Source: Patescibacteria group bacterium UBA926 (lineage in GTDB: Bacteria; Patescibacteriota; Doudnabacteria; UBA920). Taken from it: a stretch of 64,000 nt of DNA. The notes beneath the pieces were generated by a model. That model searched no databases. It saw only the letters and a list, made by a program, of their open reading frames with translations, and was not told the origin of the DNA. Location of the stretch: positions 180,909 to 244,908 of the forward strand of contig DBDS01000006.1 of the NCBI GenBank assembly GCA_002293685.1. The letters run 5' to 3'. Shown piece after piece: positions 9,642-63,881 of this stretch. Each line of letters opens with the position of its first letter. Position 1 is the first letter of the stretch. A program made the translations under genes and the position numbers.

Positions 9642-9688
9642 TTTTTATACAGAGTATAATTACTTTAACCCATTATTAAAGAGAAAAA

Positions 9689-10321
9689 ATGAATCAGAAG
9701 AAGTTAATCACTGTTTTATCTATTGCTATCCTCGCACTCATAGTAGTGGGTTATACTTATTGGAATAATTCCAACAATAACAAGCTAGCAGAGCAGTCAC
9801 TTACGGATATATTTCCGAATAGTAATACAGTGGACAATAACAGCGCTCCTCTAAAATCATTGAACACAAACACTCAACAATCCTCCAACTCAAACCCAGC
9901 CCAAAGAGACGAGACCGCTAGCTGGAAAATTTATACTAGCTCTCAATATGGATACACAATCAAGTATCCAGAAAACTTCTCCATACAAACAGGCAGTAGC
10001 GGTCCCGGAGGTACAATCTTTACATTGGCTATTAACTCTGAACCTGTTAATACAGAAGGCGCGGGTCAGTCAAAATATCTTTGGATCGGGGTTGAGCCAA
10101 AACGCACATTATCACAATGTGAAAACTCAGAAGGCAAAATCACTATTGATGGCTACTCGGTGGAAAAATGCATCGAGCAAGGTTCATTCTTTGGACAAGG
10201 CAAAGGCATGCTAGCTAGTATCAATCACGGTAATTACTCTTATTTTTTTAGCGCAGACTACTACGACAAAAATAGTGCCACTGTAGACAAAATTATCGCT
10301 ACTTTCAGATTCATAAAATAA
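9689..10321 (+). CDS. hypothetical exported protein
   Basis: N-terminal signal/anchor helix, Asn/Ser-rich linker. Confidence 0.4.
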   Translation: MNQKKLITVLSIAILALIVVGYTYWNNSNNNKLAEQSLTDIFPNSNTVDNNSAPLKSLNTNTQQSSNSNPAQRDETASWKIYTSSQYGYTIKYPENFSIQTGSSGPGGTIFTLAINSEPVNTEGAGQSKYLWIGVEPKRTLSQCENSEGKITIDGYSVEKCIEQGSFFGQGKGMLASINHGNYSYFFSADYYDKNSATVDKIIATFRFIK

Positions 10322-48227: not shown

Positions 48228-48905
48228 TTATTTTCTTATGATTGGTGCAACAATGGTTTTGTGTTTCCAGTAAATACAATCCTTTGGAGGATTAACTGCG
48301 CAAACTTTGAACTTTATGTCTTTGAAACCAGCCTTCTTTAATAACGCTTTATGCTCAGCAGAGATTGTTTTAGGTTCATCAGAAAAATAAGTAAAGACAC
48401 CATCGTCTTTTAATAATCTATGTGCTTCTTTAAAGAATGGGAAGAATTGAAAGAATTCTACTTCCTTGTCCAACGGACATGAATCAAAGAGAATACCATC
48501 AAAACTTTTATCGGGGAGGTTTTTTGTAACATCTTCCCAGAAACCTTTTAAGATTTTTAGTCTTTCGCTTTTAATCGCTGCTGGAAATTTCTTCTTTGCT
48601 GAAGCTATTACCAATGGGTGGCATTCAACAACAACGTGTGATTTCATTTTTTTAACACTTTGAATAAATCCAGCTGAAATCCCCATACCAAATCCAACTT
48701 CTAAAACAGAACCGCCTTTTGAAGTCGCTATAGTTGCCAACTCTTTCATATAGGGCTTTTCCCAGTCCTGCATAATCTGATTAACTAACTTTTTATTTCC
48801 CTTATTAAAATGCATCACCAACTCTTTTTTGTTGAAATCTAAGACAGTTTTTAGATACTTATCTTTAACTTTTTTTGAATACTTCCCAACAGTTTTGCTT
48901 ATCAT
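48228..48905 (-). CDS. guanidinoacetate N-methyltransferase-like (RMT2 family) SAM-dependent methyltransferase
   Basis: WEKPYMKELATIATSKGGSVLEVGFGMGISAG and downstream region closely follow the GAMT pattern WETPYM...SKGGRVLEVGFGMAIAA. Confidence 0.6.
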   Translation of the reverse strand: MISKTVGKYSKKVKDKYLKTVLDFNKKELVMHFNKGNKKLVNQIMQDWEKPYMKELATIATSKGGSVLEVGFGMGISAGFIQSVKKMKSHVVVECHPLVIASAKKKFPAAIKSERLKILKGFWEDVTKNLPDKSFDGILFDSCPLDKEVEFFQFFPFFKEAHRLLKDDGVFTYFSDEPKTISAEHKALLKKAGFKDIKFKVCAVNPPKDCIYWKHKTIVAPIIRK

Positions 48906-48934
48906 GTTTATACTAAAATTAATTATTATTAGAA

Positions 48935-49327
48935 TTATATCAAATTATGGTCCGGATATTTGGTACCCCTTATCACAAAATTCACTTCTAAGTCCTTAAG
49001 GTCAAACAGGTCAATAAAATATCGCTTAATCTTTTCTTGATCTAAACCATTCTGGCATGTATATACATCTGCACTAATAAATCCACGCTTCGGGAATGTA
49101 TGGATACTAATATGACTCTCGGCTATAATAACAAAACCACTCCAGCCACCTGGGTCTTTTAAGTCATTTTCTGGAGCAAATACCACCAAAGGTTCGATTA
49201 AGGCATTCATGCCCAACTCTTTTGGTAACTCATTTAACAATCTCTTAACTAAAGCTTCGTCATTAAGTAATTCTGCACTCCCCCCATATCCATCAAGGGT
49301 GAGATGTTCTCCAAAATGCTGACTCAT
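48935..49327 (-). CDS. speH: S-adenosylmethionine decarboxylase proenzyme, pyruvoyl-dependent (class 1b, SpeH-like)
   Basis: AESHISIHTFP self-cleavage motif; 130 aa. Confidence 0.7.
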   Translation of the reverse strand: MSQHFGEHLTLDGYGGSAELLNDEALVKRLLNELPKELGMNALIEPLVVFAPENDLKDPGGWSGFVIIAESHISIHTFPKRGFISADVYTCQNGLDQEKIKRYFIDLFDLKDLEVNFVIRGTKYPDHNLI

Positions 49328-49404
49328 AATATGTGAAAATTATGTGAATATCTAAGTACCTTAATTATAGCAGATTGGTCCGAAATCAAAGTAAATACTA
49401 AGTT

Positions 49405-50109
49405 TTATAACTCATCTGCGAAACTTTCCCAGATAGCTGTGGAAAATTTATCATCCTGGGTTTCTATGTGATTTTGAAGAAGTAAAGCAAAATGGTCTAA
49501 GCTCACTGCTTCCAATCCTTCAATTAACCCATCAGCACTTTTCGCATTCATCCTCAAACCGTTTCCAATTTTATCTACAGACTGGTGATGAGCACAATTC
49601 ACAGGCTTCTCACCTTCTCCAGTCATATCAGCTAACCGCGTACCACTTTCCACAATCATTTTATTACCATGATAAGTAGACACGTTATCGTAACTTGAAC
49701 CCTCTGGAACCATATGACCTTCAACGTGCTGAATTAAACTTCCACCCAACACAACATTCACCAACTGCATTCCTCTGCAAATTCCAAGCAGAGGTTTTTT
49801 ATCGGTCATCACCATTTTAATAATTTTCGTTTCAAGCAAATCACGAAGTGGATTTGTCACTTTCGTTTCAGGAACAGCCTCTTGTGAATACATCTTTGGA
49901 TTTATATCCGAACCCCCGGCCAATAGCACACCATCACACTGATGATATAATCTCGTCACCATCTCCTCACTGAACAAAACTGAACACAACAACGGCATCA
50001 CTCCCCGCTCAGTCAATTTTTTCACATACGTTTGATACAAAAAATCAATTTGCTGAACTTTCGCCCCCGCATCAACTTTGTACGGCAAGATAACTAATAC
50101 TTTTTTCAT
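49405..50109 (-). CDS. gamma-glutamyl-amine hydrolase, PuuD/peptidase C26 family (class I GATase-like)
   Basis: LLAGGSDINP, LLGICRGMQ, AHHQSV motifs. Confidence 0.7.
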   Translation of the reverse strand: MKKVLVILPYKVDAGAKVQQIDFLYQTYVKKLTERGVMPLLCSVLFSEEMVTRLYHQCDGVLLAGGSDINPKMYSQEAVPETKVTNPLRDLLETKIIKMVMTDKKPLLGICRGMQLVNVVLGGSLIQHVEGHMVPEGSSYDNVSTYHGNKMIVESGTRLADMTGEGEKPVNCAHHQSVDKIGNGLRMNAKSADGLIEGLEAVSLDHFALLLQNHIETQDDKFSTAIWESFADEL

Positions 50110-50159
50110 AAATTTGAATTTAATAAATTTGGAAAGGGGTAGATTGTACCCCTTTCACA

Positions 50160-50951
50160 CTAAACAGTTCGCACAAATTGCAAACTTAGCCGAATAAGAG
50201 CGTCCTGGCAAAGCTGATGACACCTAGCCGCGAACTTTTGAATCTTCTCATAATCAGCAGTTGAACCGCCCATTCGGAACTCAATAGTTCCATGAACAGT
50301 AATGCGAATCAACTGCCAATTCTTGCGCGGGTCTTTGTCGAAGCCTTTCTCCAAAGCGTCCTCATAAAACGCTCCAACAGACTCATAAGGTTTAGGAATG
50401 TAATCAGGCGCCATCGTCTGATAAATCCGAAGCCTCTCACCGTTACTATTATTGATGCACTCACACAAATCTTCCCACTCAGGAATGACTTTGTTGTATA
50501 CCAATAGCGCTGTTTCGAGATCTGGCATACCAACATGAACATGTGTACCAGCGACTCGACAAGCTGCCAACAAAGTTTCTCTTGGCATATCTTTGACAAT
50601 GCGCTGATATCTGCCCGTGGGGTCATTGTAAACCGACAGATCCATATCCTCACCGGCGACTTCCATGAATGAATCATAGATTTCCAGCTCAGCTAATGCT
50701 TTAGTAATTTCTCTATCGTTTTCACGGAGAGCATCTACAAGAGCATACAGCCTGACCGGCCCTACCCGATCCTCTAGCTGACAACCAGAAAGTTCGTAAC
50801 CAAACCTTCCATCAGTTGGTAAAATCTTCAGAACTCTTTCCGTTTCAGGAATTGGTTCTCCAAGAATATTTACCAAAAACCTCTCGCGTTCAACTCCGAT
50901 ATTTAGAACCTTATCGGGATTGAACTTAAACAACTGCTTGAACTTTTTCAT
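50160..50951 (-). CDS. carboxylate-amine ligase, GCS2 (YbdK) family
   Basis: IGVERERF, GTHVHVG, GTIEFR motifs. Confidence 0.7.
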   Translation of the reverse strand: MKKFKQLFKFNPDKVLNIGVERERFLVNILGEPIPETERVLKILPTDGRFGYELSGCQLEDRVGPVRLYALVDALRENDREITKALAELEIYDSFMEVAGEDMDLSVYNDPTGRYQRIVKDMPRETLLAACRVAGTHVHVGMPDLETALLVYNKVIPEWEDLCECINNSNGERLRIYQTMAPDYIPKPYESVGAFYEDALEKGFDKDPRKNWQLIRITVHGTIEFRMGGSTADYEKIQKFAARCHQLCQDALIRLSLQFVRTV

Positions 50952-51347
50952 ATTTCCTCCTAACTTTTTTGTTTTCTAGGCCACGACGATGAATTCACCG
51001 AGGCCATGAAAAACAAAAAAGCTCCTCATCTTTGTAAACAGAATAATACTGTTTACAAGGACGAAAAGCTTTGCTTTCGTGGTGCCACCTTGTTTTGCCA
51101 TGTGATTAAACATGACCTCGGCCCTTACTCCAAAATGGATATAAAGAATCTTTTGTTTACGGGAGATTAATCCCCGTACCGCCACATCTCACAAATTGAG
51201 TAGCAGAGGTCGCCGCGTTCTTCTGAACTATCTTGACCCAACCCCGTTTTGGTTTTGCAACCTGACGGGATCAAGATATCGGTTTTAGAATTGTGCCTAT
51301 ACAATAATCGATTTTTAGTTTGATGTCAAGGGAGATTATTTGTATGA

Positions 51348-51884
51348 TCAATTGTCCCTAATCATCGCTATCAGCTCCATAGCCTTCTCCACAGCCTCTT
51401 TAGCATTTACAGCTGGTTCAACCATTAGGCGGTTTCGATCATCAAAGTATTTTCCAGCCATTTTATCTGCCCAACCACCAGTACCAGTTACAGCCACAAT
51501 AGGAATGTTCGCCTGATATGCTATCGCCATTTCAGTAAGGGTACCACTACCACCATTGATTGCTATGATAGCGTCGCAAGAAAGTACGAGGTTCAGCTCT
51601 CTGCCACCTCCACGCTCCATACCACTTACGATGATGATATCGACATTTTCTTCGACTATATCCTTACCTTTTCCGTAAGTAACTCCTACGGTAGTCCCAC
51701 CAGCTTTCTTAGCTCCCCTACACGCCGCAGTAGATAAAGAGTCAAAATCCTTTTCCGCACCAAAAAACAGCACAGCTCCTTGTTGAGCAACTTCATAGCC
51801 CACCTCCTCAGCTATTGCTTCAAATTCTTTTGAGTAGTTCAAATCACTGCAACTACCCATCACACCTATTTGAATTGTTTTCAT
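51348..51884 (-). CDS. LOG/TIGR00725-family Rossmann-fold nucleotide-binding protein
   Basis: INGGSGTLTE (GGxGTxxE) motif. Confidence 0.5.
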   Translation of the reverse strand: MKTIQIGVMGSCSDLNYSKEFEAIAEEVGYEVAQQGAVLFFGAEKDFDSLSTAACRGAKKAGGTTVGVTYGKGKDIVEENVDIIIVSGMERGGGRELNLVLSCDAIIAINGGSGTLTEMAIAYQANIPIVAVTGTGGWADKMAGKYFDDRNRLMVEPAVNAKEAVEKAMELIAMIRDN

Positions 51885-52114
51885 AATAATTATTTAGTTA
51901 AACTGTTAAATCTGTTCCCGTAATCTAATATAATTATTTATACTAAACTTCTTTAAAACTTCGCTATTTCATATAATGTACTTGAATAGATTTTATTCAT
52001 ACTGTTATTCTACTTTTAGTTTGAGAAAAAATCTACTGCACTATGACAAATTTTAACAACAAATAAAAAAGGTGTCGGGGACACCTTTTAATTTATGGTA
52101 GGTCAAGTGCATGA

Positions 52115-52579
52115 TCAATGCACGTCTGATATTTCACAATGCATTTGATTAATGGAAATTTCATCACCCACCTCTTTTCCCAAGCATGCTTGAGCAAGTG
52201 GGGCAGCGACTGAAATACTTACTACCTTAACCCCATCAATAGTAATCTCTTCACCCCCAGAACTAGTAACCAAGTAATACATCTTTCGCTTCTTGGTTAG
52301 TATGTCTGTGAGCTCAAATACCGCTCCTAGATAAACTTTATCCTGAGAATTTGCTTGCAATCTACCTAGCGACGAAATCACCTCGCGCAAATCACCTAAC
52401 TGTCGACTTTGAGCCAAAGCTAGATTACTAAGCGAAAATTTATTAGTATCAGAATGACTCACATTCGCACCCGGAGAATCCCACGCCCGCTTTTTATTGC
52501 CTTCGATGGACTCAGTAATAGAGCTTAGTATCTCCTTATACCGTTCCAAAAATTTAGACCTGACAGTTTCTTTATCCAT
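52115..52579 (-). CDS. GreA/GreB C-terminal (FKBP-like) domain protein, Rnk-like
   Basis: C-terminal ...ITIDGVKVVSISVAAPLAQACLGKEVGDEISI matches Gre C-domain; AGGAGG RBS before MDKETV. Confidence 0.4.
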   Translation of the reverse strand: MDKETVRSKFLERYKEILSSITESIEGNKKRAWDSPGANVSHSDTNKFSLSNLALAQSRQLGDLREVISSLGRLQANSQDKVYLGAVFELTDILTKKRKMYYLVTSSGGEEITIDGVKVVSISVAAPLAQACLGKEVGDEISINQMHCEISDVH

Positions 52580-52590
52580 ATTTCCTCCTA

Positions 52591-53676
52591 TCAAAGCACG
52601 GAATCTTCTAACTTCAACCTTTCGGTTTTGGTTTTCAGTAGAAGATATTCTAAAATTTCCAGATCATAACCACCGCTTCCCACAGAATTCGTGGGCCTTA
52701 TTGCCATATTTTCCTTTGCTATTTTCAAATGAGGCTGGCGGAATTTCTCCATCCCTAGGAGAATCGACACCAATCCCTTGATAGAGTTCTGAGCAATAGG
52801 GTTTTCCAAGGACGAACACCTTGAAACTTGCAAAGCAATTGATGGCCTAACCATTATTTTACCAATGCGATTCCTGTACGCTTTTGGTAAATATTGCGTA
52901 CTTTCGTTCCAATAGCGAACATAGCTGATCTCATTACAATCTACGCCCCACAATATGAGATCCATAAGACATATAGGCATCTGAGCACCTCCAGGAGCAA
53001 AGTACTTCTTACCCCCGATTATCTTTGGCTCAAAAAAAGGTCGCAATGAATGAGTAAAAACCTCTGGAGAGATCTGCTTTCTCACTACGACTATATTTTT
53101 AACCATTTCTGAAAAATGATTTACGACTTCTTCACAAATGTTTGCATATTCGGGGTCTAGTAAGTCAAGTGACTGCAGAATCTCGAGCCCTGCTATGCAT
53201 ACTGGTAAATGACGCATTCCACTCACAAAAGAGTCTATAAATATCCTTTCTTCAGAATACATTGTAAAACGTCTCTGATTTTCACCTTTGGGATTTCTTG
53301 GCCCGTAGGTATAGACAGTATCAACTGGTAGCTCACGTGTAACTTCCCCAAGTTTTAACAAGACAGGCTCGAGCAGTGGAATGCTAGCAATTTTTACACC
53401 CCAACGATTAAGGGATGAGGCTAACATGCTCAAATCCCTGGTAACAGCCATGGCTGGTAACGCACTCATGGAAATGATGTTTTGGTATCCTACACTTGAG
53501 AAAGTCTTATCAAGTAGATTTAACATCTTAGAGGTGTCACCCGTTTGACTCAAGAAAGGAAATTCATTCATAAAACCCTTATCCCAGCCCAACGGATCAA
53601 GTTCAGCCACTGTTGCATCAATAAGATTCGAAAGTTTATACACGGAATACTCCGAACTCTCTTTAATAATATTCAT
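52591..53676 (-). CDS. indoleamine 2,3-dioxygenase-like (IDO/PrnB fold) heme enzyme
   Basis: FAPGGAQMPICLMDLILWGV ~ IDO [21 protein letters not shown]; proximal-His-like RQPHLKI; C-terminal GSGGYDLEILEYL ~ GTGGTDLMNFL. Confidence 0.5.
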   Translation of the reverse strand: MNIIKESSEYSVYKLSNLIDATVAELDPLGWDKGFMNEFPFLSQTGDTSKMLNLLDKTFSSVGYQNIISMSALPAMAVTRDLSMLASSLNRWGVKIASIPLLEPVLLKLGEVTRELPVDTVYTYGPRNPKGENQRRFTMYSEERIFIDSFVSGMRHLPVCIAGLEILQSLDLLDPEYANICEEVVNHFSEMVKNIVVVRKQISPEVFTHSLRPFFEPKIIGGKKYFAPGGAQMPICLMDLILWGVDCNEISYVRYWNESTQYLPKAYRNRIGKIMVRPSIALQVSRCSSLENPIAQNSIKGLVSILLGMEKFRQPHLKIAKENMAIRPTNSVGSGGYDLEILEYLLLKTKTERLKLEDSVL

Positions 53677-53822
53677 AATTCCTCCTTCAATTCTATTCCT
53701 GGATTAAATCAACCGCAGGTTACGACCCCAGACCAAATCTAGAGGCAAAATCTATGGTAGATTTTTTTAACTCTTTATATCTGCTAAAATATATTCATAA
53801 TTTAATAACATAATTTAATAGC

Positions 53823-54371
53823 ATGGAAATTTACTTAGTCACAAAAAATCAAGGAAAGCTGATGGCGGCTCAAAAAGTTTTTAAAGACTCTAATATTAAA
53901 CTTCTCCCTGTTGAAAAAGATTACCCAGAAATTCAAGCCAACTCCTCCATCCAAATTGCTGAACATACAAGTATACAGGTCTCCGCTGAACTTGGAAAGC
54001 CAGCACTAAGGGAAGATCATAGTATTTGCCTATACGCCCTGAATGGATTACCAGGACCTTTTATGAGCTATTTTGGAGAGAAGATGTCTGATAAGGATTT
54101 ATTAAATCTTTTTAAGAATCAACAGAATCGAACTGGGTATTTTGAGGTTGCAACTGTATTAGCTTTTCCCGATGGTAAAACCATCAACTCAATATTTAAA
54201 GTAAATTTTACTCTAAGCGAACAGAGTAAGGGAGAACTACAAAGCGGATGGAATAGGATTATTATGCTTGAAGGAGAAACAAGAACCCTAGCTGAGTACC
54301 CAGAATCTGAAAGGCTACATATATGGGAACAAGGATATAAATCCATTGCAAATCAATTAGGGAGAGCCTAA
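53823..54371 (+). CDS. Ham1/RdgB-family non-canonical purine NTP pyrophosphatase homolog (divergent)
   Basis: LVTKNQGKL, REDHSICLYALNGLPGPF, ATVLAFPDG motifs. Confidence 0.55.
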   Translation: MEIYLVTKNQGKLMAAQKVFKDSNIKLLPVEKDYPEIQANSSIQIAEHTSIQVSAELGKPALREDHSICLYALNGLPGPFMSYFGEKMSDKDLLNLFKNQQNRTGYFEVATVLAFPDGKTINSIFKVNFTLSEQSKGELQSGWNRIIMLEGETRTLAEYPESERLHIWEQGYKSIANQLGRA

Positions 54372-55031
54372 TCTAATAAAGACACCGCGCAGAACATCAC
54401 GTGCGCCCTCACTGGTTTTTGAGCTATACTCATGTACTTGACCATTGGGTTCAATTTTGTTTTTCTGTAATAATTCCAATACCTGCTGATATGTAAGTAA
54501 TATCATCGGGAGTCCTAAGTTATTAAAATAAATAGGTCCGTTCAGTGCTTTTTTTAATTTACTCTCACCTCCATTTGCTACAAAAATATTTAAACACAAA
54601 AAGCCACCATGTTTCAGAATTCTAGATATTTCTGAAATTCCATTTTCTAAAATTTGTATAGAATTTCCATTATGCAATACCCCGCTTGCTATAACTACAT
54701 CAAATTGTGAATTTTTATAAGGGACATTTTGAAAGTCAGCTTTAATCACCCTATTTTCCGTATATCGATCACTAAACCCAAATGTACTGAATTTTTTTCT
54801 TGTCGCATTAACCATCTCAGTATGATAATCGCAAGCATAGACATCGAACCCCAGCTTTAAAGATAGCTCGGAGTTTCTTCCCGCACCACTTCCTAAGTCT
54901 AATAACTTAAGATTAAATGGATCTTTAAAGCCCCGCAAAAAATCTTCCCAGTATTTAGGATGGGGATAATTCTCAAACTCATTTACCACATGCAGATCAT
55001 TCCAATAATCCGACTGGGTCATAGTCTTCAT
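54357..55031 (-). CDS. class I SAM-dependent methyltransferase
   Basis: LLDLGSGAGRNS motif I. Confidence 0.65.
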   Translation of the reverse strand: MKTMTQSDYWNDLHVVNEFENYPHPKYWEDFLRGFKDPFNLKLLDLGSGAGRNSELSLKLGFDVYACDYHTEMVNATRKKFSTFGFSDRYTENRVIKADFQNVPYKNSQFDVVIASGVLHNGNSIQILENGISEISRILKHGGFLCLNIFVANGGESKLKKALNGPIYFNNLGLPMILLTYQQVLELLQKNKIEPNGQVHEYSSKTSEGARDVLRGVFIRLGSP

Positions 55032-55041
55032 GGTTAATAAA

Positions 55042-56115
55042 TTATAGTTTACTTAATACTCTATACCCTCGATTATGAACCTTCGTGATAATGCAATCTA
55101 ATCCAGCTTTGGAAAATTCCTTAATACACTTCTTCTCATCACTTGTTATTGCAAAAAAAGCTGGTCCTACACTAGACAATGATAATGTATATACCTTGGG
55201 GTCCAAAAAGAGCTTCTTAATTCTCCGTGCAATACCTACCACAAGAGGATAAGCAAATGAGCAATTTTCTATGCTCCCATACAAAAACCTATAATTATAG
55301 ATAACTTTCGAGGCTGATTTCAGATCTCCGACTAACATCGCAGGGAGTGTGAAATGAATAAGCTGGTAGGCGACTTGCGTCCCCCATTTTTTTCCAGTTT
55401 CAATAAATTTTTTTATATTCTTTACTTCTTGCTTAATGAGTTCAGTAGAATCTCTTGGATTATAGTTTCTGGGAATCCCTATTACCACTTTCAAATCCTT
55501 TGAAATATTCATCTTAGCTATAATCTTGCTTTCCCCCGATATAACTATAAACCCAGCCTTAACTAGTGATGCGGCGGCGGCACCTCCAATGCACTGAACA
55601 TGTTGTAGCTCCGTAGAATTTCCATCAATTTCTTCTCCATGATTCTGAGCTAAATATAAAATTAAATCTGAATTCTTAATTGGCTTGCCATATATTTCAT
55701 TTATGGCAATAGCAATAGACGAAATCAACCCACTGCTAGAACCGAAACCGTAATGATTAAGGTTAACCTCTTCTTTAATGCTAATATCAAAACCATTCTT
55801 AGTATTTAAAGCTCTTTTCATCAACCTAGCTGCATGGACCGCTAACTGAGGCCTCGAACATCCGGGTAATACATTAATCCTAGAATCCTTTCGTATCCTA
55901 ACTAGAACTATTCGGTAAAGCTGTATTGGGAATACGATTTCTCCCGGGGTGTAAATTTTTGAATCATTAATTGCTATTAGTGAAGGATCTAAAGCCATAG
56001 CATTTAATCTGTACGGACATTTTATCACTACGCTTGAGTACGCAGGTCTAACCCTACCAACTACCATCTTTGGTGAGTTAAGAATCGTTCCAATCTTAAA
56101 TTTGGGAGATTTCAT
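55042..56115 (-). CDS. GHMP kinase family protein
   Basis: HYGFGSSSGLISSIAIA (GHMP motif II). Confidence 0.55.
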   Translation of the reverse strand: MKSPKFKIGTILNSPKMVVGRVRPAYSSVVIKCPYRLNAMALDPSLIAINDSKIYTPGEIVFPIQLYRIVLVRIRKDSRINVLPGCSRPQLAVHAARLMKRALNTKNGFDISIKEEVNLNHYGFGSSSGLISSIAIAINEIYGKPIKNSDLILYLAQNHGEEIDGNSTELQHVQCIGGAAAASLVKAGFIVISGESKIIAKMNISKDLKVVIGIPRNYNPRDSTELIKQEVKNIKKFIETGKKWGTQVAYQLIHFTLPAMLVGDLKSASKVIYNYRFLYGSIENCSFAYPLVVGIARRIKKLFLDPKVYTLSLSSVGPAFFAITSDEKKCIKEFSKAGLDCIITKVHNRGYRVLSKL

Positions 56116-56629
56116 GGCGGGCCTTTACTTTGTTAATAGATTGAATAAAAATCACAGCTCTAGATACAGTTTTTTCTACCTCCCCTTCTAAGTTTGAGCA
56201 GATTAGCAATGGAATTTCTAATTGTTCAGACAAGCGATAAGCTTCATTTCTAGACCGCTTTAAGTCTAATTGTAAACTTGCCAGTTCAGTAAATCTTTTT
56301 TTCTTCTTGTCTGCTTTCAGTCTTTTTAACAAATGCTCGAGTGGTGGATCAAGTAAAATTAGTGCTTTTGTCCTTTCATTAGTATAATTCGTAGCTCTGT
56401 TTGGATTTTCAAACTCTAAATGCTCATCAATGAGCACCAAACCATTTGTATTATCCAATATCTCATACATAGCAAAGTCAGCCAGCGCCTTCTCTTGATA
56501 CTGACGAAATAACTCACTGTAGGTGATAGTCCTGCAATCCAGATCTTTGATTGAACCAATCATGGATAATAGAGTAGTCTTACCGCTCCCACTGACACCC
56601 GCAACCTTCACCGTCCAAAAATTTCCCAT
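56096..56629 (-). CDS. P-loop NTPase / small-molecule kinase-like protein
   Basis: VAGVSGSGKTTL Walker A; overlaps downstream GHMP gene start. Confidence 0.5.
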   Translation of the reverse strand: MGNFWTVKVAGVSGSGKTTLLSMIGSIKDLDCRTITYSELFRQYQEKALADFAMYEILDNTNGLVLIDEHLEFENPNRATNYTNERTKALILLDPPLEHLLKRLKADKKKKRFTELASLQLDLKRSRNEAYRLSEQLEIPLLICSNLEGEVEKTVSRAVIFIQSINKVKARHEISQI

Positions 56630-56812
56630 ATAAATGGTTTAATTTAAAGTTAAATAAAATATACAAATACATTATCCATGTTGTCAATAGTTGACAACAA
56701 AGAAAATTGTTGCTAAAAATTAATAACAAGAGAGGTTGTTTGAAACCCTCAATTTCTCAGTATATTTACTATTTTATTTGTTTTTTAGTTATATTTCATT
56801 AACAGTGGAAAA

Positions 56813-57577
56813 ATGAACGAACTTGAACAACAGCTTCAGAAAATCGGTCTATCTGATAAAGAAGCCAAGCTATATCTTGCACTACTTAGTGCTGGCCCTG
56901 TAACCGCTAGAGAAGTCGCGCATTTAGCCAAAATTAACCGTAGTACTACATACGTTATTTTAGAATCGTTGGTTAAAAAAGGCCTAGTCAGTAGTATAGA
57001 ACAAAACAAAATCCGAAAATATTCTTCAGTGAGCCCTGAGCGTCTACTTTCACATATAGAAGACCAGATTAGAGAATATACGAGTATGGTTGGTCAAGTG
57101 AATTCAATGCTACCTCAGTTAAAAAGCATCTACACAGGAATCGGCCCTAAACCCAAGATTCAGTACTTTGAAGAAGCTGAGGGAATAAAAACAGTTTACG
57201 AAGACACTTTAACCTCAAATGAAACCATCCGAGCATTCGCGTCTATTGATGATATGCATGAAGCTTTAGGTGAGTACTTCCCTGCCTACTATCATCGCCG
57301 AGCAGCAAAGAAGATTCATATCAAATCTATTCACCCCGACACTACAGCATCGAGAGAGAGAATGAAGCATAACAAAAAGGAAGCTCGCGAAGGATTGTTA
57401 ATACCTCAGGACAAGTTTGGTTTTACTCCTGAAATTAATATCTACAATGACAAAATTGCATTTATGTCACTGACAGAAAAGCATGCGATGGTAATTGAGA
57501 GTAAAGAGTTAGCCGACGCCCTCCGTAAAATTTTTGATTTAGCATGGATTGGTGCGAAATCAATCAGTAAGAAGTAA
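56813..57577 (+). CDS. TrmB-family transcriptional regulator
   Basis: N-terminal wHTH LSDKEAKLYLALLSAGPVTAREVA...RSTTYVILESLVKKGLV. Confidence 0.65.
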   Translation: MNELEQQLQKIGLSDKEAKLYLALLSAGPVTAREVAHLAKINRSTTYVILESLVKKGLVSSIEQNKIRKYSSVSPERLLSHIEDQIREYTSMVGQVNSMLPQLKSIYTGIGPKPKIQYFEEAEGIKTVYEDTLTSNETIRAFASIDDMHEALGEYFPAYYHRRAAKKIHIKSIHPDTTASRERMKHNKKEAREGLLIPQDKFGFTPEINIYNDKIAFMSLTEKHAMVIESKELADALRKIFDLAWIGAKSISKK

Positions 57578-57586
57578 ATCCATATC

Positions 57587-58396
57587 ATGTCACAGACACC
57601 ATTTAAAAAACTTGATAATCATTGGGGCCAAAAGTTTAATGCTTTTATCAAAGATGAAAGCACTAATATAAGTGGGACCATCAAAGACCGGAGAAATAAA
57701 CACATAATCTCCCGTGCTCAAGCTCTCCACGTCGATAAGTTGGTTATTATTACCTCAGGTAATAACGGATATAGCCTTGGGAATTTAGCAAGAAAAAGCA
57801 ATATTAAAATAGTTTCCATTATCGATAAAAATCGACCGCAGAAAGTCAAAAAAGAACTACTTCAGGTTTGCTATGACGTTATCGAACTTAATCTACACAG
57901 CAAATATCTCCTACCCGAAGATACAGTTAGATATGCCCGTGAAAATGATCAGGAGGTGATTTGGGACGTTACAAATGGCTATGAGGAAGGCTATGAAGAT
58001 GTGATTAAAGAAATCTATGCCAAAATCACCCCAGATTATATAGTAGTCCCTATCGGCAGCGGTGGAATTTTTTTCGCTTTTGCAGAAAAAACCGAACAAC
58101 TCAAACTGCCAACTAAAATCATTGGGGTCGATCTACAGCATAAAGCCTATAGCTTCGCAGATAAATTATATAACCCTTGGCCTTCTCCTTACGAGAAAAG
58201 TATCGAAAATTTCCGCCTTAACGGTCATAAAATAATTAGTCTTTCTGACACTGAAATCAAGCAAACTTATAACAAGTTTAAAAAACATATTGATTGTGAG
58301 CCTTCTGCCAGTGTCGTATTCGCCGCCCCAGATAAGTTCAAATTTGAACCAGCTGACAAAGTGGTATTTCTAAACACAGGAAAAGGCCTAATTTAA
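57587..58396 (+). CDS. fold-type II PLP-dependent enzyme (Trp-synthase-beta/cysteine-synthase/threonine-synthase superfamily)
   Basis: ESTNISGTIKDRRN (SFKDRG-like PLP-Lys motif), glycine loop GSGGIF. Confidence 0.5.
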   Translation: MSQTPFKKLDNHWGQKFNAFIKDESTNISGTIKDRRNKHIISRAQALHVDKLVIITSGNNGYSLGNLARKSNIKIVSIIDKNRPQKVKKELLQVCYDVIELNLHSKYLLPEDTVRYARENDQEVIWDVTNGYEEGYEDVIKEIYAKITPDYIVVPIGSGGIFFAFAEKTEQLKLPTKIIGVDLQHKAYSFADKLYNPWPSPYEKSIENFRLNGHKIISLSDTEIKQTYNKFKKHIDCEPSASVVFAAPDKFKFEPADKVVFLNTGKGLI

Positions 58397-60033: not shown

Positions 60034-60642
60034 CTATTCAGGTTTCAATTCGGCTTTCACAATGTATCTTTGCAGTGCCGTACCAATTGGATACGACGTC
60101 TGTAATGTTAGAATCTTTTTCCCTTTGGTATCTTGATCTAATAAATATGTGGCAGTATTCTCTGCTACAAACTTTTCGTAAACTATATATTTGAATTGCT
60201 CTGCTCTTTCGTTGGTAACAATAATCTCGGCACCAATTTCAACTTTTGGGAGCAATGCAAACACAGTTTTATAATCTCCTTTTGCAAATGCATAATCGGA
60301 AGAGTGGCCAAAGATATATGTGTTCCCGACCACACCTACAGGAGCTGTTCCCGGGTAAAGCACTACACCTCTCTGCAAGGCAGGTTGGAAGATTTCCTCC
60401 CCTACTCCATCAATGAATATAATCGGCGCGCGAATGTCTAATGTTGGAATATATAACTCATTGGCCTCCGAAACAATCTTCATTTCATCTCGTCGAATTT
60501 CTCTCTGAACCTCAGTTACGAATATTCGGTTTATATAATATCTAACTTGTTGATTAAAGTAATCAAAATTTAATAACACAAAACCAATCACCAATATACC
60601 GATAATGCCGAGAAGGATTTTTAAAATTTTACTTGGGACCAT
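60034..60642 (-). CDS. sortase-family protein with Ser in place of the catalytic Cys (TLQTSYP)
   Basis: N-terminal TM, sortase beta-barrel motifs LYIPTLDI, GNTYIFGH, LTLQTSYP, downstream conserved Arg; codon TCG confirmed on minus strand. Confidence 0.6.
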   Translation of the reverse strand: MVPSKILKILLGIIGILVIGFVLLNFDYFNQQVRYYINRIFVTEVQREIRRDEMKIVSEANELYIPTLDIRAPIIFIDGVGEEIFQPALQRGVVLYPGTAPVGVVGNTYIFGHSSDYAFAKGDYKTVFALLPKVEIGAEIIVTNERAEQFKYIVYEKFVAENTATYLLDQDTKGKKILTLQTSYPIGTALQRYIVKAELKPE

Positions 60643-60694
60643 ATATTTGTATTTATATTATATCACCTATTATTGCGGATCATGTGAGACCAAA

Positions 60695-60731
60695 AGAAAA
60701 GAACCCTATTCTTTCGAACAGGGTTCTTTTA
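60695..60731 (-). terminator. terminator downstream of LPXTG protein gene
   Basis: agaaccct attctttcgaac agggttctttt. Confidence 0.6.
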
Positions 60732-60737
60732 GATATT

Positions 60738-63700
60738 CTAGTCAGCTTTAGCGATTGAAAGTTTTGGAAGAATAATAATTCCCAAAATTGCAATGAAGCT
60801 AAATACTATTGATAACGGAGTTCCAGTTCTTGGAAGAGTTGTAACTTCTCCTAGAACTTGAGGATTCTCGTATGGAAGACCAGTAGAATCACCAGCTACA
60901 CGACCTTCATCTGGATTTGGAATTCGTGTTCCAGAGGAGCCACCGCCACCCGGGTTTCCACCACGGTCAGTTGGGTAGTTACCGAAATCTAGACCAGAGA
61001 CAGTGTAAACAATTTCAGCATGAGCAGTCTTGATTAAGCCATCCCAGAAACTAACATCTTCACCACTAGGGACTAGCTCAACCAAACCGTTTACTGCACC
61101 GGGACATGTTTCAAAAGGAACGCCCAAAGCTACAATGTACTCATTAGGAGCAGGAACTGGTTCTGTGATTTCCCAACCAGACTGCAAAACTTCACGAACA
61201 GTATGACAACCGGCTGGAAGGTTTAGAAGTTCATAATTTCCATTCACATCACTAGCACCAGATGGTTCTTCACCATCCAAAGAATCGTTGTTGTTTAAGT
61301 CGATGTATGCGATCCAGTTTTCGAGACCTAGATCAGGATCCTCGACATCATAATCACCATCATTATTTACATCATGGTAGATAGCACCCCTAATATTGTA
61401 ACCGTTTGGTTCAGTTGGGGTATCATCCTCACTGTTAACAAAATTGTATGGACCTTTGATGCCGTCAATTTGTTTATCTAAGGTCACCGAATGAAAACCT
61501 TCTGGAGAAACCTGAGTCCAACCGCTTTGATTTACTTCACGAACTTGGTAAGTACCAGTCGGTAAGTTAGCAAAAAAGTAGTTGCCTTCTGAATCTGTTA
61601 CGTCATAAGGTTCGCCATCATCTAGCGCGCCATTTTGATTCAAATCAACATAGATTGTCCAGCCAGAAGCATTGGCTTCTGTGTTTTGAACTTGCTTCTG
61701 TCCATAAATTCCATTACCACAAGTCGGCAATCCATCTTTCTTAATCAACCCGAGAATGAAGCCAATTAACTTTCCAAACTTAGAATCATACTTAAAGTCT
61801 TTTACAGTACATACCGGGTAGTTTCCAAAATCTTTATTCTTATGGTTCTTACCTGCGTCTAGAGTGTGAACAATGGTATTTGGAGCGCTTTGCATCCAAC
61901 CAGTTTTATGTTCTTCAGCAATTACTAACTCGCCTTCTAAGCCAGTGATATCAAATTCGTATTGACCCCAAATATTTGTATAATCAACATCAAGAATTTC
62001 ATAAATAGTAACTTCTAGTTCACCTGTATTGTTTGAACCAAAGGTGTCGTAAATCTGGAAGTCAGCTGGAGTTCCATCACCTGTGATTGTTGTCCAATAA
62101 GTGTGAGCAGAATTATACATTCCCCAATTTGGTGAAGAACCATCGATTTGAAGATCTAAGAGAGTTGGGCCGTAAACTTCATAGTTCTGAACTAAGTCAG
62201 TCCAGTAACCACTACTATTACGTTCTGAGTACTGAGCATCTGCTTCTATTCCATCACCGGCATCAAATGTACCAGTAACCTTCACCATGTAATCAACTGT
62301 GCTTGTTAAAGCACTAGAGCTCACTACTGGAGTATTCAAGGCAGTAACGTCAAAAGTTTCGACTTGCTTCATTAGATAAATCTTCCAGTTCCAGATTCCG
62401 TGTTCGAAGATTCCATTCTTTTTGCCGTTCTTGTTTAAATCTTTGTATTTCATACCAGAAACTTTAAATTCTGGTTCATTACAAAGCACAAGACTGACCT
62501 GAACTCCATCTACATCATAACCGTCAGTAGCATTATTGAATTTAGAGCTTGTCTTATCAGAAACATCTGTAAGTTTGATGTACTTGGCGTACTGAACAGC
62601 ACCCATTTCAACATTACGTTGTGTCTGGAAGTAGTCACCCAAATCTGTCCAAGGACCCGCCATAGACATAGCTACTTTAACATTCACCTTCTCAGGATAA
62701 TTTGCATCGGAAGGGCTACCAAAGCTTGTTTCAACAAGTTTAATATCTGTACCAGGAACATTTTGGAAGACTCCACCGAAAGATAGAATGATGCTTCCAC
62801 CGAATCCAAGGGATACAAAGTTAAGAGTATCGTTATCTTCTGCTTCGCCAAGAGCTTTGGTAGGGTCGCTACGTTCAGCTAACACAGGAGTCACTACTGG
62901 ATTCTTTTGATTTCCCTGTTTAAATTCATGATAAGCAGTAGCCCAAGCAGGACCATCTTTACAAGGCTCTGGTTCGCAAGCAGTTGTACACTTGTTTACT
63001 AAGGTGAATTTGGTGGTCTGAGCATTTACTTCTTTTTCACCGGCACCAGAGACATATTCCCAACCTTCCTTCATGATTTCATCTAAGTAGTAATCACCAA
63101 AAGGAACATTCTTAATAGTTACACAACCGTTCTCACCAGTTGTTCCCTTATAGATTGGAAAAATATCTACGGTTAGGAAACCAGAATTATCGCCGTAGTA
63201 GCTATCTAAAATCCTGAAGTCAATTTCATCACCGGCTATTAAAGTCTTGCTGGATGAATATTTATGGTTTACTAAATTCAACGGACCCCAGTTTGGATTC
63301 ACTCCGTCTACTTGAATTCCTAAGTAACCAGCCCATTCACCTGGCAAAGAATTTACATTGATCCAAGGGTTCTCGGCTGTCGCACCGAATTCTCCTGGTT
63401 CACGCTTTGTATAACCAGCATCACTGATGTCACCTGAACTTCCCGGTCGATAAACGTAAGTTCCGCTTGCTTCCAAAACATAATCACCAGCAGGTAACAC
63501 ATCAGAAGAATAAATAGTTCCATCCGGGTAAACCTTAACTGAATCAACTTCTTCACCCTTCAAGAATACTTCCCAACCTGGTAGAGGTTGCTGGGTTTTA
63601 TAATCAATCTTACATACTTCAATATCGGTCGCACAGTCTTCTTTAACAGAAACGTCATCTAAGAAACCGCCGAAAGAATCTCCAGGACCCACATCTTCAA

Positions 63701-63881
63701 ACTGGACTCGTGTTGTGGTCGAGCTTGCGATAAAGCTAAATGTGTATTCTGTCCAAACTGTTGCATCACCAGAATTCGGGATCGCTGTGGAATTCACAGT
63801 AACATCAAGATCACCTGCAGTTACTTTAATTGCATTGTTTGCAGCAACCTGACCTGGACGTGGGGATGCAGCGAAAGTCAA
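60738..63881 (-). CDS. large cell-surface protein with Cna-B/SdrD-B-like repeats and C-terminal LPRTG sorting signal (TTG start, N-terminus uncertain)
   Basis: C-terminal LPRTG + hydrophobic helix + KLSIAKAD tail; repeated GxYxV-E...GW modules. Confidence 0.6.
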   Translation of the reverse strand: MTFAASPRPGQVAANNAIKVTAGDLDVTVNSTAIPNSGDATVWTEYTFSFIASSTTTRVQFEDVGPGDSFGGFLDDVSVKEDCATDIEVCKIDYKTQQPLPGWEVFLKGEEVDSVKVYPDGTIYSSDVLPAGDYVLEASGTYVYRPGSSGDISDAGYTKREPGEFGATAENPWINVNSLPGEWAGYLGIQVDGVNPNWGPLNLVNHKYSSSKTLIAGDEIDFRILDSYYGDNSGFLTVDIFPIYKGTTGENGCVTIKNVPFGDYYLDEIMKEGWEYVSGAGEKEVNAQTTKFTLVNKCTTACEPEPCKDGPAWATAYHEFKQGNQKNPVVTPVLAERSDPTKALGEAEDNDTLNFVSLGFGGSIILSFGGVFQNVPGTDIKLVETSFGSPSDANYPEKVNVKVAMSMAGPWTDLGDYFQTQRNVEMGAVQYAKYIKLTDVSDKTSSKFNNATDGYDVDGVQVSLVLCNEPEFKVSGMKYKDLNKNGKKNGIFEHGIWNWKIYLMKQVETFDVTALNTPVVSSSALTSTVDYMVKVTGTFDAGDGIEADAQYSERNSSGYWTDLVQNYEVYGPTLLDLQIDGSSPNWGMYNSAHTYWTTITGDGTPADFQIYDTFGSNNTGELEVTIYEILDVDYTNIWGQYEFDITGLEGELVIAEEHKTGWMQSAPNTIVHTLDAGKNHKNKDFGNYPVCTVKDFKYDSKFGKLIGFILGLIKKDGLPTCGNGIYGQKQVQNTEANASGWTIYVDLNQNGALDDGEPYDVTDSEGNYFFANLPTGTYQVREVNQSGWTQVSPEGFHSVTLDKQIDGIKGPYNFVNSEDDTPTEPNGYNIRGAIYHDVNNDGDYDVEDPDLGLENWIAYIDLNNNDSLDGEEPSGASDVNGNYELLNLPAGCHTVREVLQSGWEITEPVPAPNEYIVALGVPFETCPGAVNGLVELVPSGEDVSFWDGLIKTAHAEIVYTVSGLDFGNYPTDRGGNPGGGGSSGTRIPNPDEGRVAGDSTGLPYENPQVLGEVTTLPRTGTPLSIVFSFIAILGIIILPKLSIAKAD

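Follow-up and report, generated by a model that had tools for sequence, protein, structure and literature searches.

A conserved Patescibacteria gene cassette with a predicted PrnB-family heme enzyme and a Gre-like factor

Patescibacteria carry a conserved gene cassette that encodes an NMP-kinase-like small kinase, a GHMP-superfamily protein, a SAM-dependent methyltransferase, a Ham1-family protein, a PrnB-like enzyme, and a Gre-like factor. The PrnB-like gene and a gene for a U32 protein exclude each other within this cassette and have been exchanged repeatedly across lineages; the U32 gene usually comes with one for a HisC/CobD-like PLP enzyme. No published description of this Patescibacteria cassette was found in the literature. 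The copy treated here lies in a window of 64,000 nucleotides, the whole stretch of DNA that was analysed, from Patescibacteria group bacterium UBA926.

It is quite plausible, if somewhat short of probable, that the PrnB-bearing form is the O2-dependent module of a pathway that converts an aromatic amino acid into a non-canonical, probably nucleotide-like metabolite tied to RNA polymerase. Patescibacteria represent a large share of bacterial diversity, and their tiny genomes have kept very few biosynthetic pathways. Since the cassette has been retained in spite of this, it is likely to be important to the biology of the group.

Arrangement of the Locus

The first gene of the cassette encodes a small P-loop kinase of 177 amino acids (56096..56629, minus strand). 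Its NMP-kinase-like character is suggested by the Pfam families AAA_17/AAA_18 and by a weak NCBIfam adenylate-kinase match. The stop of this gene overlaps the start of the next by 20 nt. The second gene encodes a protein of 357 amino acids (55042..56115, minus strand) assigned to the homoserine-kinase/beta-RFAP-synthase (ForT) branch of the GHMP superfamily (Pfam GHMP_kinases_N, 2.9e-9). Next comes a class I SAM-dependent methyltransferase of 224 amino acids (54357..55031, minus strand; Pfam Methyltransf_11, 1.8e-16). Upstream of these three genes is a promoter-like site, TTGACA-18-TATATT (56658..56687, minus strand; 11/12 positions), which is a pattern match from a consensus scan that finds no more such sites in this region than shuffling would lead one to expect.

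The Ham1/ITPase-family protein, a predicted non-canonical NTP pyrophosphatase of 182 amino acids, is encoded on the plus strand (53823..54371; Pfam Ham1p_like, 1.4e-22; Mj0226 in the PDB, 4.7e-15). Its gene is transcribed away from the PrnB-like gene and toward the methyltransferase gene.

The PrnB-like gene (52591..53676, minus strand; 361 amino acids) has a Shine-Dalgarno sequence, GGAGG, that can be read 4 nt upstream of its ATG (53681..53685, minus strand). It is followed by the Gre-like gene (52115..52579, minus strand; 154 amino acids). Both open reading frames had been recognized in the initial annotation, the downstream one by its end at 52115. The likely start of the Gre-like gene is the ATG at 52579 and not the TTG at 52594, which would give 159 amino acids, because public assemblies list an identical protein of 154 residues and the orthologues contain 152-156.

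The two genes had been described as translationally coupled, with the ribosome-binding site of the second (placed at 52581-52586) inside the 3' end of the first. The AGGAGG actually occupies 52584..52589 (minus strand), past the PrnB-like stop codon TGA (52593-52591) and before the ATG. The genes do not overlap, and the 11-nt spacer holds its own Shine-Dalgarno sequence. In orthologous loci the spacer can be as short as about 13 nt or as long as about 215 nt. Translational coupling is therefore not conserved, and that part of the annotation has to be given up.

At the 3' end of the pair there is an intrinsic-terminator-like hairpin with a 10-bp stem followed by TTATTTGTTG (52067..52089, minus strand). 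Its folding energy is -15.3 kcal/mol (z = -4.0), and none of 200 shuffled sequences folds equally well. The short spacer and the terminator after the Gre-like gene together suggest that the pair is co-transcribed and tightly linked. On these signals, the pair is a two-gene unit with a terminator of its own, and it supplies the distal part of the conserved cassette.

Conservation of the Cassette

The order GHMP protein, methyltransferase, Ham1, and PrnB-like enzyme is syntenic in 12/12 distinct genome loci, and is also found in metagenome loci. A cassette of six to seven genes has been kept across Saccharibacteria, Paceibacteria, and Minisyncoccia. The most conserved member is the GHMP gene, for which 362 homologues were found, some of them fused to a methyltransferase. 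The methyltransferase is syntenic in nearly all cassettes.

The other genes were counted in a set of 40 dereplicated cassettes, each flanked by 4 kb of sequence or more. Ham1 is found in 32 of them. The kinase is likewise represented in 32/40, either by an orthologue or by a second family of about 200 residues that resembles adenylate, UMP-CMP, and dephospho-CoA kinases. The Gre-like gene is present in 26 of the 40, in several gene orders and together with both types of oxidase gene; in the other 14 it was not detected within 5-6 kb.

In more distant clusters the GHMP gene often stands directly after the PrnB gene. Such distant PrnB clusters also hold fusions of a methyltransferase with a PLP-dependent decarboxylase (Pyridoxal_deC), an APH kinase, and a sulfotransferase.

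Alternation of the PrnB-Like and U32 Genes

Among the 40 cassettes, 20 have only the PrnB-like gene, 17 have only the U32 gene, 3 have neither, and none has both (Fisher p = 2.6e-8); loci L001-L017 were fetched by means of PrnB itself, which inflates the share of PrnB and not the exclusivity. The PLP enzyme, which is HisC/CobD-like, accompanies the U32 gene in 14/17 cassettes and the PrnB-like gene in 0/20. On a neighbor-joining tree of the GHMP proteins, which carries no support values, the two cassette types are interleaved. The mutual exclusivity shows that these are alternative modules, not that both catalyze the same reaction.

The U32 protein, which the window itself does not encode, matches PF01136 (47.8 bits against 22.4), and the nearest models are UbiU/TrhP. 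Three of its cysteines (C189, C193, and C216) are present in 16/16 sequences and a fourth (C320) in 15/16. Their spacing differs from the CX6CX15CX3/4C pattern of other U32 families (PMC6747719).

U32 proteins act as Fe-S hydroxylases that need no O2, and O2-dependent counterparts are known for them (PMC6747719, PMC6599085, PMC10990095). Examples are UbiI/H/F versus UbiU-UbiV and TrhO versus TrhP, where, as in the cassette, either an O2-using enzyme or a four-cysteine U32 Fe-S protein is employed (PMC6747719, PMC6599085, PMC10990095). The cassette differs from these dual systems in that its U32 side adds the HisC/CobD-like PLP enzyme, and its U32 subfamily is distant from UbiU/TrhP, with an E-value of about 1e-4. 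It also differs in using an IDO-fold heme enzyme on the O2-dependent side, and we know of no report of such an enzyme as a counterpart of U32. The cassette would extend the principle of O2-dependent and U32 Fe-S alternatives to an IDO-fold protein.

The PrnB-Family Enzyme

Homology searches identify the 361-residue protein as a genuine member of the PrnB family, with the IDO fold and a predicted His-ligated heme. With the Pfam PrnB model (PF08933) it reaches 89.3 bits, where the cut-off is 27 (E 3e-25). Full-length alignments were obtained with FbPrnB from Flavobacteriales (9dfg; 6e-48, residues 16-340) and with PrnB of P. fluorescens (PfPrnB, 2v7i; 3.2e-36, residues 21-355). The initial annotation had called the protein an IDO-like heme dioxygenase. 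The fold and family relationship is borne out through PrnB, whereas the Pfam IDO model itself (PF01231) stays below threshold at 14.8 bits against 26 (E 0.013), with no stretch passing alone.

The three peptide blocks on which that assignment rested are located at residues 226-245, 313-319, and 333-345. The second contains the predicted proximal ligand, His316. Alignment places it, within FRQPHLKIA, on the proximal histidine of PfPrnB, within FRAPHLKLA, as had been supposed, and it is invariant across 27 homologues.

In FbPrnB, Gly210, Gly211, and Ser319 bind the carboxylate of the substrate and Tyr104 narrows the pocket (PMC11791213). The carboxylate-binding residues predicted here are G229/G230 and S334, with Y124 in the pocket. 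By alignment, G230, S334, and Y124 are the conserved equivalents of Gly210, Ser319, and Tyr104, and the position of Gly211 is taken by an alanine, A231. Among the 27 homologues, S334 never varies and G230 is conserved in at least 90%. As the residues that hold the carboxylate and shape the pocket are conserved, a Trp-like aromatic amino acid is a reasonable substrate.

Heme synthesis is generally considered absent from Patescibacteria, so the cofactor would need to be scavenged. The cassette would give PrnB-family heme enzymes a functional context that is new for them, and in hosts from which heme production is not expected. Patescibacteria are also reported to be devoid of electron-transport chains (PMC7507113). 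Not even for the canonical enzyme has PrnB activity been reconstituted in vitro (PMC11791213). Given this, the enzymology of PrnB would gain fresh natural partners from the cassette.

A Possible Pathway and the Role of the GHMP Protein

In the proposed pathway, a Trp-like aromatic amino acid would be oxidized with O2 by the PrnB-like enzyme, and anaerobic relatives would carry out this oxidation with the O2-independent U32 enzyme and the PLP enzyme. The oxidation product would pass to the GHMP-fold enzyme. The reaction preferred for this enzyme resembles that of ForT or beta-RFAP synthase: an electron-rich aryl or pyrrole carboxylate would lose CO2 and be C-ribosylated with PRPP. The resulting ribotide may then be methylated and subsequently phosphorylated by the small kinase, and Ham1 would hydrolyze its triphosphate form. 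Finally, the Gre-like factor on RNA polymerase might exclude or excise the analogue, as a form of self-protection, or might sense it.

The assignment of the GHMP step is suggested chiefly by structure. The model of the protein has a pLDDT of 92, and its top three fold matches in the PDB are all ForT (E 5.5e-17 to 3.3e-15, TMq 0.63-0.67). The best of these has a TM of 0.67/0.73, compared with an E-value of 1.2e-14 and a TMq of 0.60 for the best kinase, a modest lead of about 2 log units and about 0.06 TM. ForT, PyfQ, and beta-RFAP synthase are PRPP-dependent C-glycoside synthases within the GHMP superfamily, which join an aromatic carboxylate to PRPP under loss of CO2 (PMC8183095). Such chemistry would suit an aryl or pyrrole carboxylate of the PrnB type.

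In other respects the protein differs from the ForT/PyfQ/beta-RFAP (RHP) synthase group. The NF040726 model of beta-RFAP synthase gives a weak full-length match of 37.7 bits against a cut-off of 328, and all NCBIfam scores of the protein are far under the cut-offs. The homoserine-kinase and beta-RFAP-synthase models of NCBIfam each match 32/32 family members and score equally. Partner genes of the formycin or methanopterin type are absent from the cassette. Of the PRPP ligands of ForT (Arg-19, His-99, Arg-135, and Glu-211) none is covered by the sequence alignment, which reaches only ForT residues 273-311. The invariant R36, H121, and E230 of the GHMP protein are candidate PRPP ligands by position only.

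Another model for the GHMP step is phosphorylation. Here the PrnB-like or U32 enzyme would hydroxylate the amino acid, and the GHMP protein would act like homoserine kinase on the new hydroxyl. A PLP enzyme, either the HisC/CobD-like protein or the methyltransferase-fused Pyridoxal_deC of distant clusters, would decarboxylate or transaminate the product. The methyltransferase would complete a phospho-amine, and the Gre-like factor would be a linked regulator only. The same set of reactions is found in psilocybin or phosphocholine-type pathways.

Besides the homoserine-kinase models that match all 32 family members, this model is favored by the best PDB sequence-profile match of the GHMP protein, which is a homoserine kinase (1.1e-6). 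The frequent HisC/CobD-like enzyme of the U32 cassettes suits the logic of a hydroxy-amino-acid kinase working with a PLP enzyme. A precedent is PduX, a GHMP L-threonine kinase that works with CobD. The decarboxylase fusions, APH kinase, and sulfotransferase of distant PrnB clusters point the same way. However, phosphorylation of this kind would give no role to the highly conserved NMP-kinase-like kinase and Ham1, the PLP enzyme is missing from all 20 PrnB-type Patescibacteria cassettes, and the closest fold is that of ForT. On balance this model is unlikely, although it has real points in its favor.

The Gre-Like Factor

The downstream protein had been described as a Gre C-terminal domain with a non-Gre N-terminus. 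The first half of this description holds, since the Pfam GreA_GreB C-terminal domain (PF01272) matches at 38.7 bits against a cut-off of 26.9 (9.8e-10). The second half is contradicted by the predicted structure. Although the Pfam GreA_GreB_N model does not match the protein, its AlphaFold model (pLDDT 79) consists of a two-helix hairpin (3-34, 43-73) and a beta domain. Foldseek aligns about 160 columns of this model with Gfh1 and GreA (E 2.5e-7, prob 1.0), and RNAP-bound Gfh1 is among the best fold matches. Gfh1 is also matched by sequence, at 2e-4.

Its parts, as read from the Pfam, Foldseek, and family-alignment results, are a hairpin at residues 3-73 with the conserved tip motif D34-SPGANVSHSDTNKF-48 and, near residues 83-154, the Gre C-domain. 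By its predicted fold, the product of 52115-52579 (minus strand) is a complete secondary-channel factor of RNA polymerase of the Gre/Gfh1 type and belongs to a distinct subgroup. It resembles Gfh1, GreA, GreB, and Rnk in its size and in its coiled-coil hairpin with a C-terminal globular domain. It differs from them in its genomic tie to a metabolic cassette and in its tip. In E. coli GreA the canonical acidic tip is formed by D41/E44. The family here has the conserved signature APGxxxSHSDT[ST][KR] with a single near-universal aspartate, D44 inside SHSDT, which is present in 156/158 sequences; the canonical two-acid pattern is absent, and the pLDDT of the model is below 50 at residues 38-40. 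With its 576 representative clusters and its new tip motif, the family would amount to a large and unstudied branch among the Gre-type factors of RNA polymerase.

The link between this factor and the cassette could be incidental, that is, the protein may be a housekeeping transcript-cleavage factor beside a metabolic operon. This would accord with the 14 cassettes in which it was not detected nearby, with its variable distance from PrnB, and with a different Gre-like type that heads the cassette near ribosomal-protein genes in locus L001. Yet the linkage holds over at least four gene orders and both oxidase types, and the tip motif of the family is strongly conserved and distinct from that of canonical Gre factors. 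A canonical GreA with both the N- and C-terminal Pfam domains also occurs near the cassette in locus L002, so that the Gre-like gene there is an extra paralogue. An incidental association is thus very unlikely.

A more far-reaching version of the proposed pathway is speculative and decidedly doubtful as a whole. It holds that a Patescibacteria-specific nucleotide derived from an aromatic amino acid, possibly a C-ribotide, acts on RNA polymerase through the Gre-like factor, whose SHSDT tip would bind or exclude it. The biosynthetic modules would be interchangeable, one aerobic (heme PrnB-like) and one anaerobic (U32 Fe-S with PLP). If true, this would be a control or immunity system made of a small molecule and a secondary-channel factor, analogous to ppGpp-DksA.

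The different Gre-like type seen in L001 occurs at the head of the cassette, beside ribosomal-protein genes, in some lineages.

Relation to Pyrrolnitrin Synthesis and Tryptophan Breakdown

PrnB is known as monodechloroaminopyrrolnitrin synthase, and the full-length homology extends to the proximal histidine, the carboxylate-binding serine and glycine, and the pocket tyrosine. A classical role would be the synthesis of pyrrolnitrin or a similar arylpyrrole antibiotic, or an indole-modifying pathway together with a fold-type-II PLP enzyme and a TrmB regulator, as the initial annotation proposed. Such PALP and TrmB-like genes do exist at 56813-58396 (plus strand), 3-5 kb from the PrnB-like gene. 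They are not conserved neighbors, being adjacent to it only in the genome of the window itself and absent from every other locus analysed, and the pathway built on them is not supported.

The flavin halogenases PrnA/PrnC and the Rieske oxygenase PrnD were not found near the gene in the window or in the PrnB-bearing loci examined, and without prnA, prnC, and prnD a chlorinated substrate is not expected. The pyrrolnitrin enzyme also differs in context, as the gene here stands in a cassette with the kinase, GHMP, methyltransferase, Ham1, and Gre-like genes and is interchangeable with a U32 Fe-S protein and a PLP enzyme. Such a widespread and vertically conserved cassette in lineages with tiny genomes is unlike a sporadic secondary-metabolite cluster. 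Judged by its gene content, the cassette does not encode a pyrrolnitrin pathway. The classical role, already largely refuted by synteny, is extremely improbable.

Equally far-fetched is an IDO- or TDO-like opening of tryptophan to N-formylkynurenine for NAD synthesis or detoxification, which the shared fold superfamily and the faint IDO match might suggest, since PrnB scores 75 bits higher than the sub-threshold IDO model, kynurenine-pathway genes are in none of the loci examined, and the conserved partners are of other kinds. These conserved partners, which the initial annotation had left out, are the small kinase, the GHMP-fold protein, the methyltransferase, and Ham1.

The PrnB-like enzyme and its partner gene

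The gene at 52591-53676 on the minus strand codes for a 361-residue protein that the initial annotation read as an IDO-like or PrnB-type heme enzyme. This reading is well supported. At 89.3 bits the match to Pfam PrnB is well above the cut-off of 27, the IDO model remains below threshold, and the protein aligns end to end with solved PrnB structures (FbPrnB from Flavobacteriales, 9dfg, 6e-48; PfPrnB from P. fluorescens, 2v7i, 3.2e-36). The three peptide blocks originally cited are found at residues 226-245, 313-319, and 333-345. In the alignment to solved PrnB, the proximal-histidine segment FRQPHLKIA pairs with FRAPHLKLA, and His316, R80, D81, Y124, R212, G229, S334, and G335 are invariant in 27 homologues.

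In the FbPrnB structures, the amino group of the substrate sits on the iron, while Gly210, Gly211, Ser319, and a heme propionate hold the carboxylate and Tyr104 narrows the indole pocket (PMC11791213). The alignment to solved PrnB places G230, A231, S334, and Y124 at these four residues. Homology to PrnB and the conserved residues thus speak for the assigned fold and heme ligand, and also for a site that takes a free aromatic amino acid. IDO/TDO-like catabolism is supported by neither profile nor context.

The downstream gene (52115-52579, minus strand) encodes the 154-residue Gre-like factor, and both claimed reading frames are real. Their junction reads ...GTG CTT TGA TAGGAGGAAAT ATG GAT AAA, with the stop codon at 52593-52591, an AGGAGG Shine-Dalgarno sequence at 52589-52584, and the first ATG at 52579. 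The ribosome-binding site had been placed inside the upstream gene at 52581-52586; these coordinates are 3 nt off, and the motif sits 3' of the stop codon. A mechanical ORF list starts the gene at TTG 52594 (159 residues). Public gene callers, however, report an identical 154-residue protein (P0057), a 159-residue variant also being known, and orthologues have 152-156 residues.

A 10-bp hairpin with a T-rich tail closes the pair at 52089-52067 on the minus strand (folding, z = -4.0). Together with the 11-nt spacer between the genes, this makes the pair a compact two-gene unit. Translational coupling, as first proposed, is not conserved, since spacer length in orthologous loci varies from 13 nt to over 200 nt.

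A conserved cassette in Patescibacteria

The PrnB-like gene has the same neighbours in 12 of 12 distinct genome loci: a small kinase, a GHMP-fold protein, a SAM methyltransferase, and Ham1 precede it in this order, and a gene for a protein of about 154 residues usually comes next. The window has exactly this order: small kinase (56096-56629), GHMP-fold protein (55042-56115), and methyltransferase (54357-55031) on the minus strand, Ham1 (53823-54371) on the plus strand, and then the PrnB-like and Gre-like genes. The gene identities and the cassette leave very little doubt; among the former is the assignment of the 361-residue protein to the PrnB family of heme enzymes. Close homologues of this protein are all metagenome-derived, and those with a name belong to Patescibacteria (Saccharibacteria, Paceibacterota or Minisyncoccia).

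Ham1 changes orientation from one lineage to another. In the window it is convergent with the methyltransferase gene, the two 3' ends overlapping by 15 nt, and divergent from the PrnB-like gene; the 146-bp region between Ham1 and the PrnB-like gene must contain both promoters. Two loci depart in their PrnB-like genes. In L014 (3699-4939) the gene is broken into two ORFs by a frameshift, pseudogene formation or an assembly error; in L013 (about 9001-10068 and upstream) three ORFs match, and the order is rearranged, with PrnB before GHMP. In L003, 9970-17116 directly adjoins the cassette and is a mobile or defence island; it holds a Y1 transposase, a reverse transcriptase with an HTH protein, HEPN_AbiU2, and a DNA methylase fused to LexA along with a fragment of a restriction enzyme.

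Distant PrnB homologues (37-38% identity) have a GHMP gene directly downstream, in clusters that carry a methyltransferase-PLP-decarboxylase fusion, an AAA_18 kinase, NUDIX or Ham1, and HAD. PrnB and GHMP are therefore, from gene order, the ancient core pair of the cassette. Natural fusions suggest consecutive steps: GHMP-fold protein with methyltransferase (P0121, P0165, P0176; about 580 residues), and, in distant PrnB clusters, methyltransferase with a Pyridoxal_deC decarboxylase (L016 10113-11984, L017 8693-10573; about 625 residues).

The initial annotation had instead proposed an indole or aromatic amino-acid pathway with a TrmB-family regulator and a fold-type-II PLP (PALP) enzyme (56813-58396, plus strand), which diverge from the cassette head. 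Synteny contradicts such a pathway, classical pyrrolnitrin synthesis included: both genes adjoin the cassette only in the window's own genome. A pyrrolnitrin gene is likewise ruled out, as neither a halogenase nor a Rieske oxygenase occurs near the PrnB-like gene in the window or in any homologous locus examined.

All cassette parts are members of known families. What appears new is the gene combination, the alternation of heme enzyme and U32 protein, and the Gre tip signature. In the literature searched, neither PrnB-family proteins of Patescibacteria nor this combination nor this Gre subgroup is described, though such a search does not prove absence.

Alternation of PrnB and U32

Some contigs of about 800 kb with GHMP homologues carry the cassette without PrnB and with an adjoining Peptidase_U32 gene. 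For a census, 80 further loci were fetched with the GHMP profile and searched with custom-built HMMs. Once the cassettes had been dereplicated at 90% GHMP identity and those with under 4 kb of flank on either side left out, 40 remained. PrnB alone lies near 20 of these and U32 alone near 17; three have neither and none has both (Fisher p = 2.6e-8 for mutual exclusion). In an unbiased neighbour census, a HisC/CobD-like PLP enzyme occurred in 14 of the 17 U32 cassettes and in none of the 20 with PrnB. The census also yielded a second small-kinase family, and a kinase of either family is present in 32/40. On a neighbour-joining tree of GHMP proteins, the two types are interleaved at no fewer than four places (>=4), so the exchange happened repeatedly.

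The cassette U32 proteins score above the Pfam cut-off, with UbiU and TrhP as nearest named relatives. They share four conserved cysteines, the 4Fe-4S hallmark, with the U32 hydroxylases, but the spacing differs (PMC6747719). As hydroxylases, U32 proteins depend on prephenate and work without O2, and dual systems with an O2-dependent counterpart are known in UbiU/V and TrhO/TrhP (PMC6599085, PMC10990095). The genomic pattern of the cassette suggests a similar alternation and, with these precedents, points to the PrnB-like enzyme as the O2-dependent alternative to U32 plus PLP enzyme. That the two are alternative O2-dependent and O2-independent modules is somewhat more likely than not; identical chemistry is not implied.

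The GHMP-fold protein and a possible pathway

The GHMP-fold family has 362 matches, some fused to a methyltransferase, and syntenic orthologues show 64% mean column identity. In a fold search with a confident structure model (pLDDT 92), ForT holds ranks 1-3 (E 5.5e-17, TM 0.67/0.73), and kinases follow behind (E >= 1.2e-14, TM about 0.60). ForT, the closest fold, belongs to the beta-RFAP-synthase branch and is a C-glycoside synthase that depends on PRPP. Homoserine-kinase and beta-RFAP-synthase models each match 32/32 members tested with similar E-values, the former partially and the latter over the full length. The protein is on the homoserine-kinase/ForT branch and is a candidate kinase or C-glycoside synthase.

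A tentative chain, given slightly less than an even chance as a whole, would lead from an aromatic amino acid to the Gre-like factor. The heme enzyme would oxidatively transform a Trp-type amino acid, a step that U32 and the PLP enzyme would take anaerobically, and the product would pass to the GHMP-fold enzyme. PrnB-type chemistry, by its proposed mechanism, gives electron-rich aminophenyl-pyrrole carboxylate intermediates. Just such aromatic carboxylates are substrates of ForT-type enzymes (PMC8183095); for this reason, and because the NMP-kinase-like kinase and the Ham1 NTP pyrophosphatase follow a nucleotide logic, ForT-like decarboxylative coupling to PRPP is favoured. The C-ribotide step itself is less likely than not. 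After it, the methyltransferase would tailor the product, Ham1 would act on the NTP pool, and the Gre-like factor on RNA polymerase; the last two might serve in self-protection or proofreading against the analogue, or as a sensor.

Alternatively, the amino acid could be hydroxylated, converted to a phospho-ester, and passed to PLP chemistry. This kinase route fits both the matches to homoserine-kinase models and the HisC/CobD partner, but it leaves the NMP-kinase-like kinase and Ham1 without explanation. A defence-system reading of the cassette was considered and found no support.

The Gre-like factor

Pfam detects the C-domain alone, and the protein had been described as having a non-Gre N-terminus. 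In the AlphaFold model (pLDDT 79, pTM 0.65), helices 3-34 and 43-73 pair into a hairpin, and a beta-rich domain comes after it. In Foldseek, about 160 columns align with GreA and with Gfh1 structures, RNAP-bound 3aoi among them, at probability 1.0, so that description is unsupported. As modelled, the protein is a complete Gre-type factor and represents a new subgroup.

An exhaustive search (E <= 1e-10) gives 576 representative clusters, nearly all of 150-165 residues. Among 158 representatives, conservation peaks at the hairpin tip, with the consensus A-P-G-x-x-x-S-H-S-D-T-[ST]-[KR], and D44 is present in 156. Cassette Gre-like proteins have two tip types, labelled GreL (the SHSDT type) and GreX; SHSDTSK occurs in the 156-residue protein of L022. 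The GreX type (L001 4614-5084; L023 5942-6451) has a more acidic tip, EDGEREHDNPELEDA, with the Asp alone common to both; in some lineages it heads the cassette, and some U32-type cassettes have it at their tail.

Of the 40 cassettes, 26 have a Gre-like gene; several gene orders and both oxidases occur among them, so the linkage is to the cassette and not to PrnB alone. In U32-type cassettes the gene holds the same post-Ham1 position, PrnB simply being missing. Persistence across gene orders contradicts an incidental linkage, as does the existence of canonical GreA besides; L002 has one nearby, making the cassette protein an additional paralogue.

Neighbouring genes

On the other side of the cassette, 48228-51884 (minus strand) encodes a SLOG cluster4/TIGR00725-like protein, a GCS2/YbdK-like carboxylate-amine ligase, a peptidase C26 of gamma-glutamyl hydrolase type, a SAM decarboxylase, and a spermidine-synthase/guanidinoacetate-methyltransferase-like protein. 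The run resembles a polyamine or gamma-glutamyl-amine module and lies beside the cassette only in the window's own genome. A SLOG cluster4 gene occurs about 4 kb from the L022 cassette, and a SAM decarboxylase in L005. Between the GCS2-like and SLOG genes, 50952-51347 (396 bp) is without a convincing ORF, a 69-residue GTG ORF alone overlapping it; Rfam gave no match there at gathering threshold.

At 60034-63881 on the minus strand, a sortase gene stands beside a 1047-residue protein with SpaA/SdrD_B/CarboxypepD_reg-type repeats (faint Pfam matches, identical public contig); the protein is probably a surface adhesin or pilin anchored by sortase.
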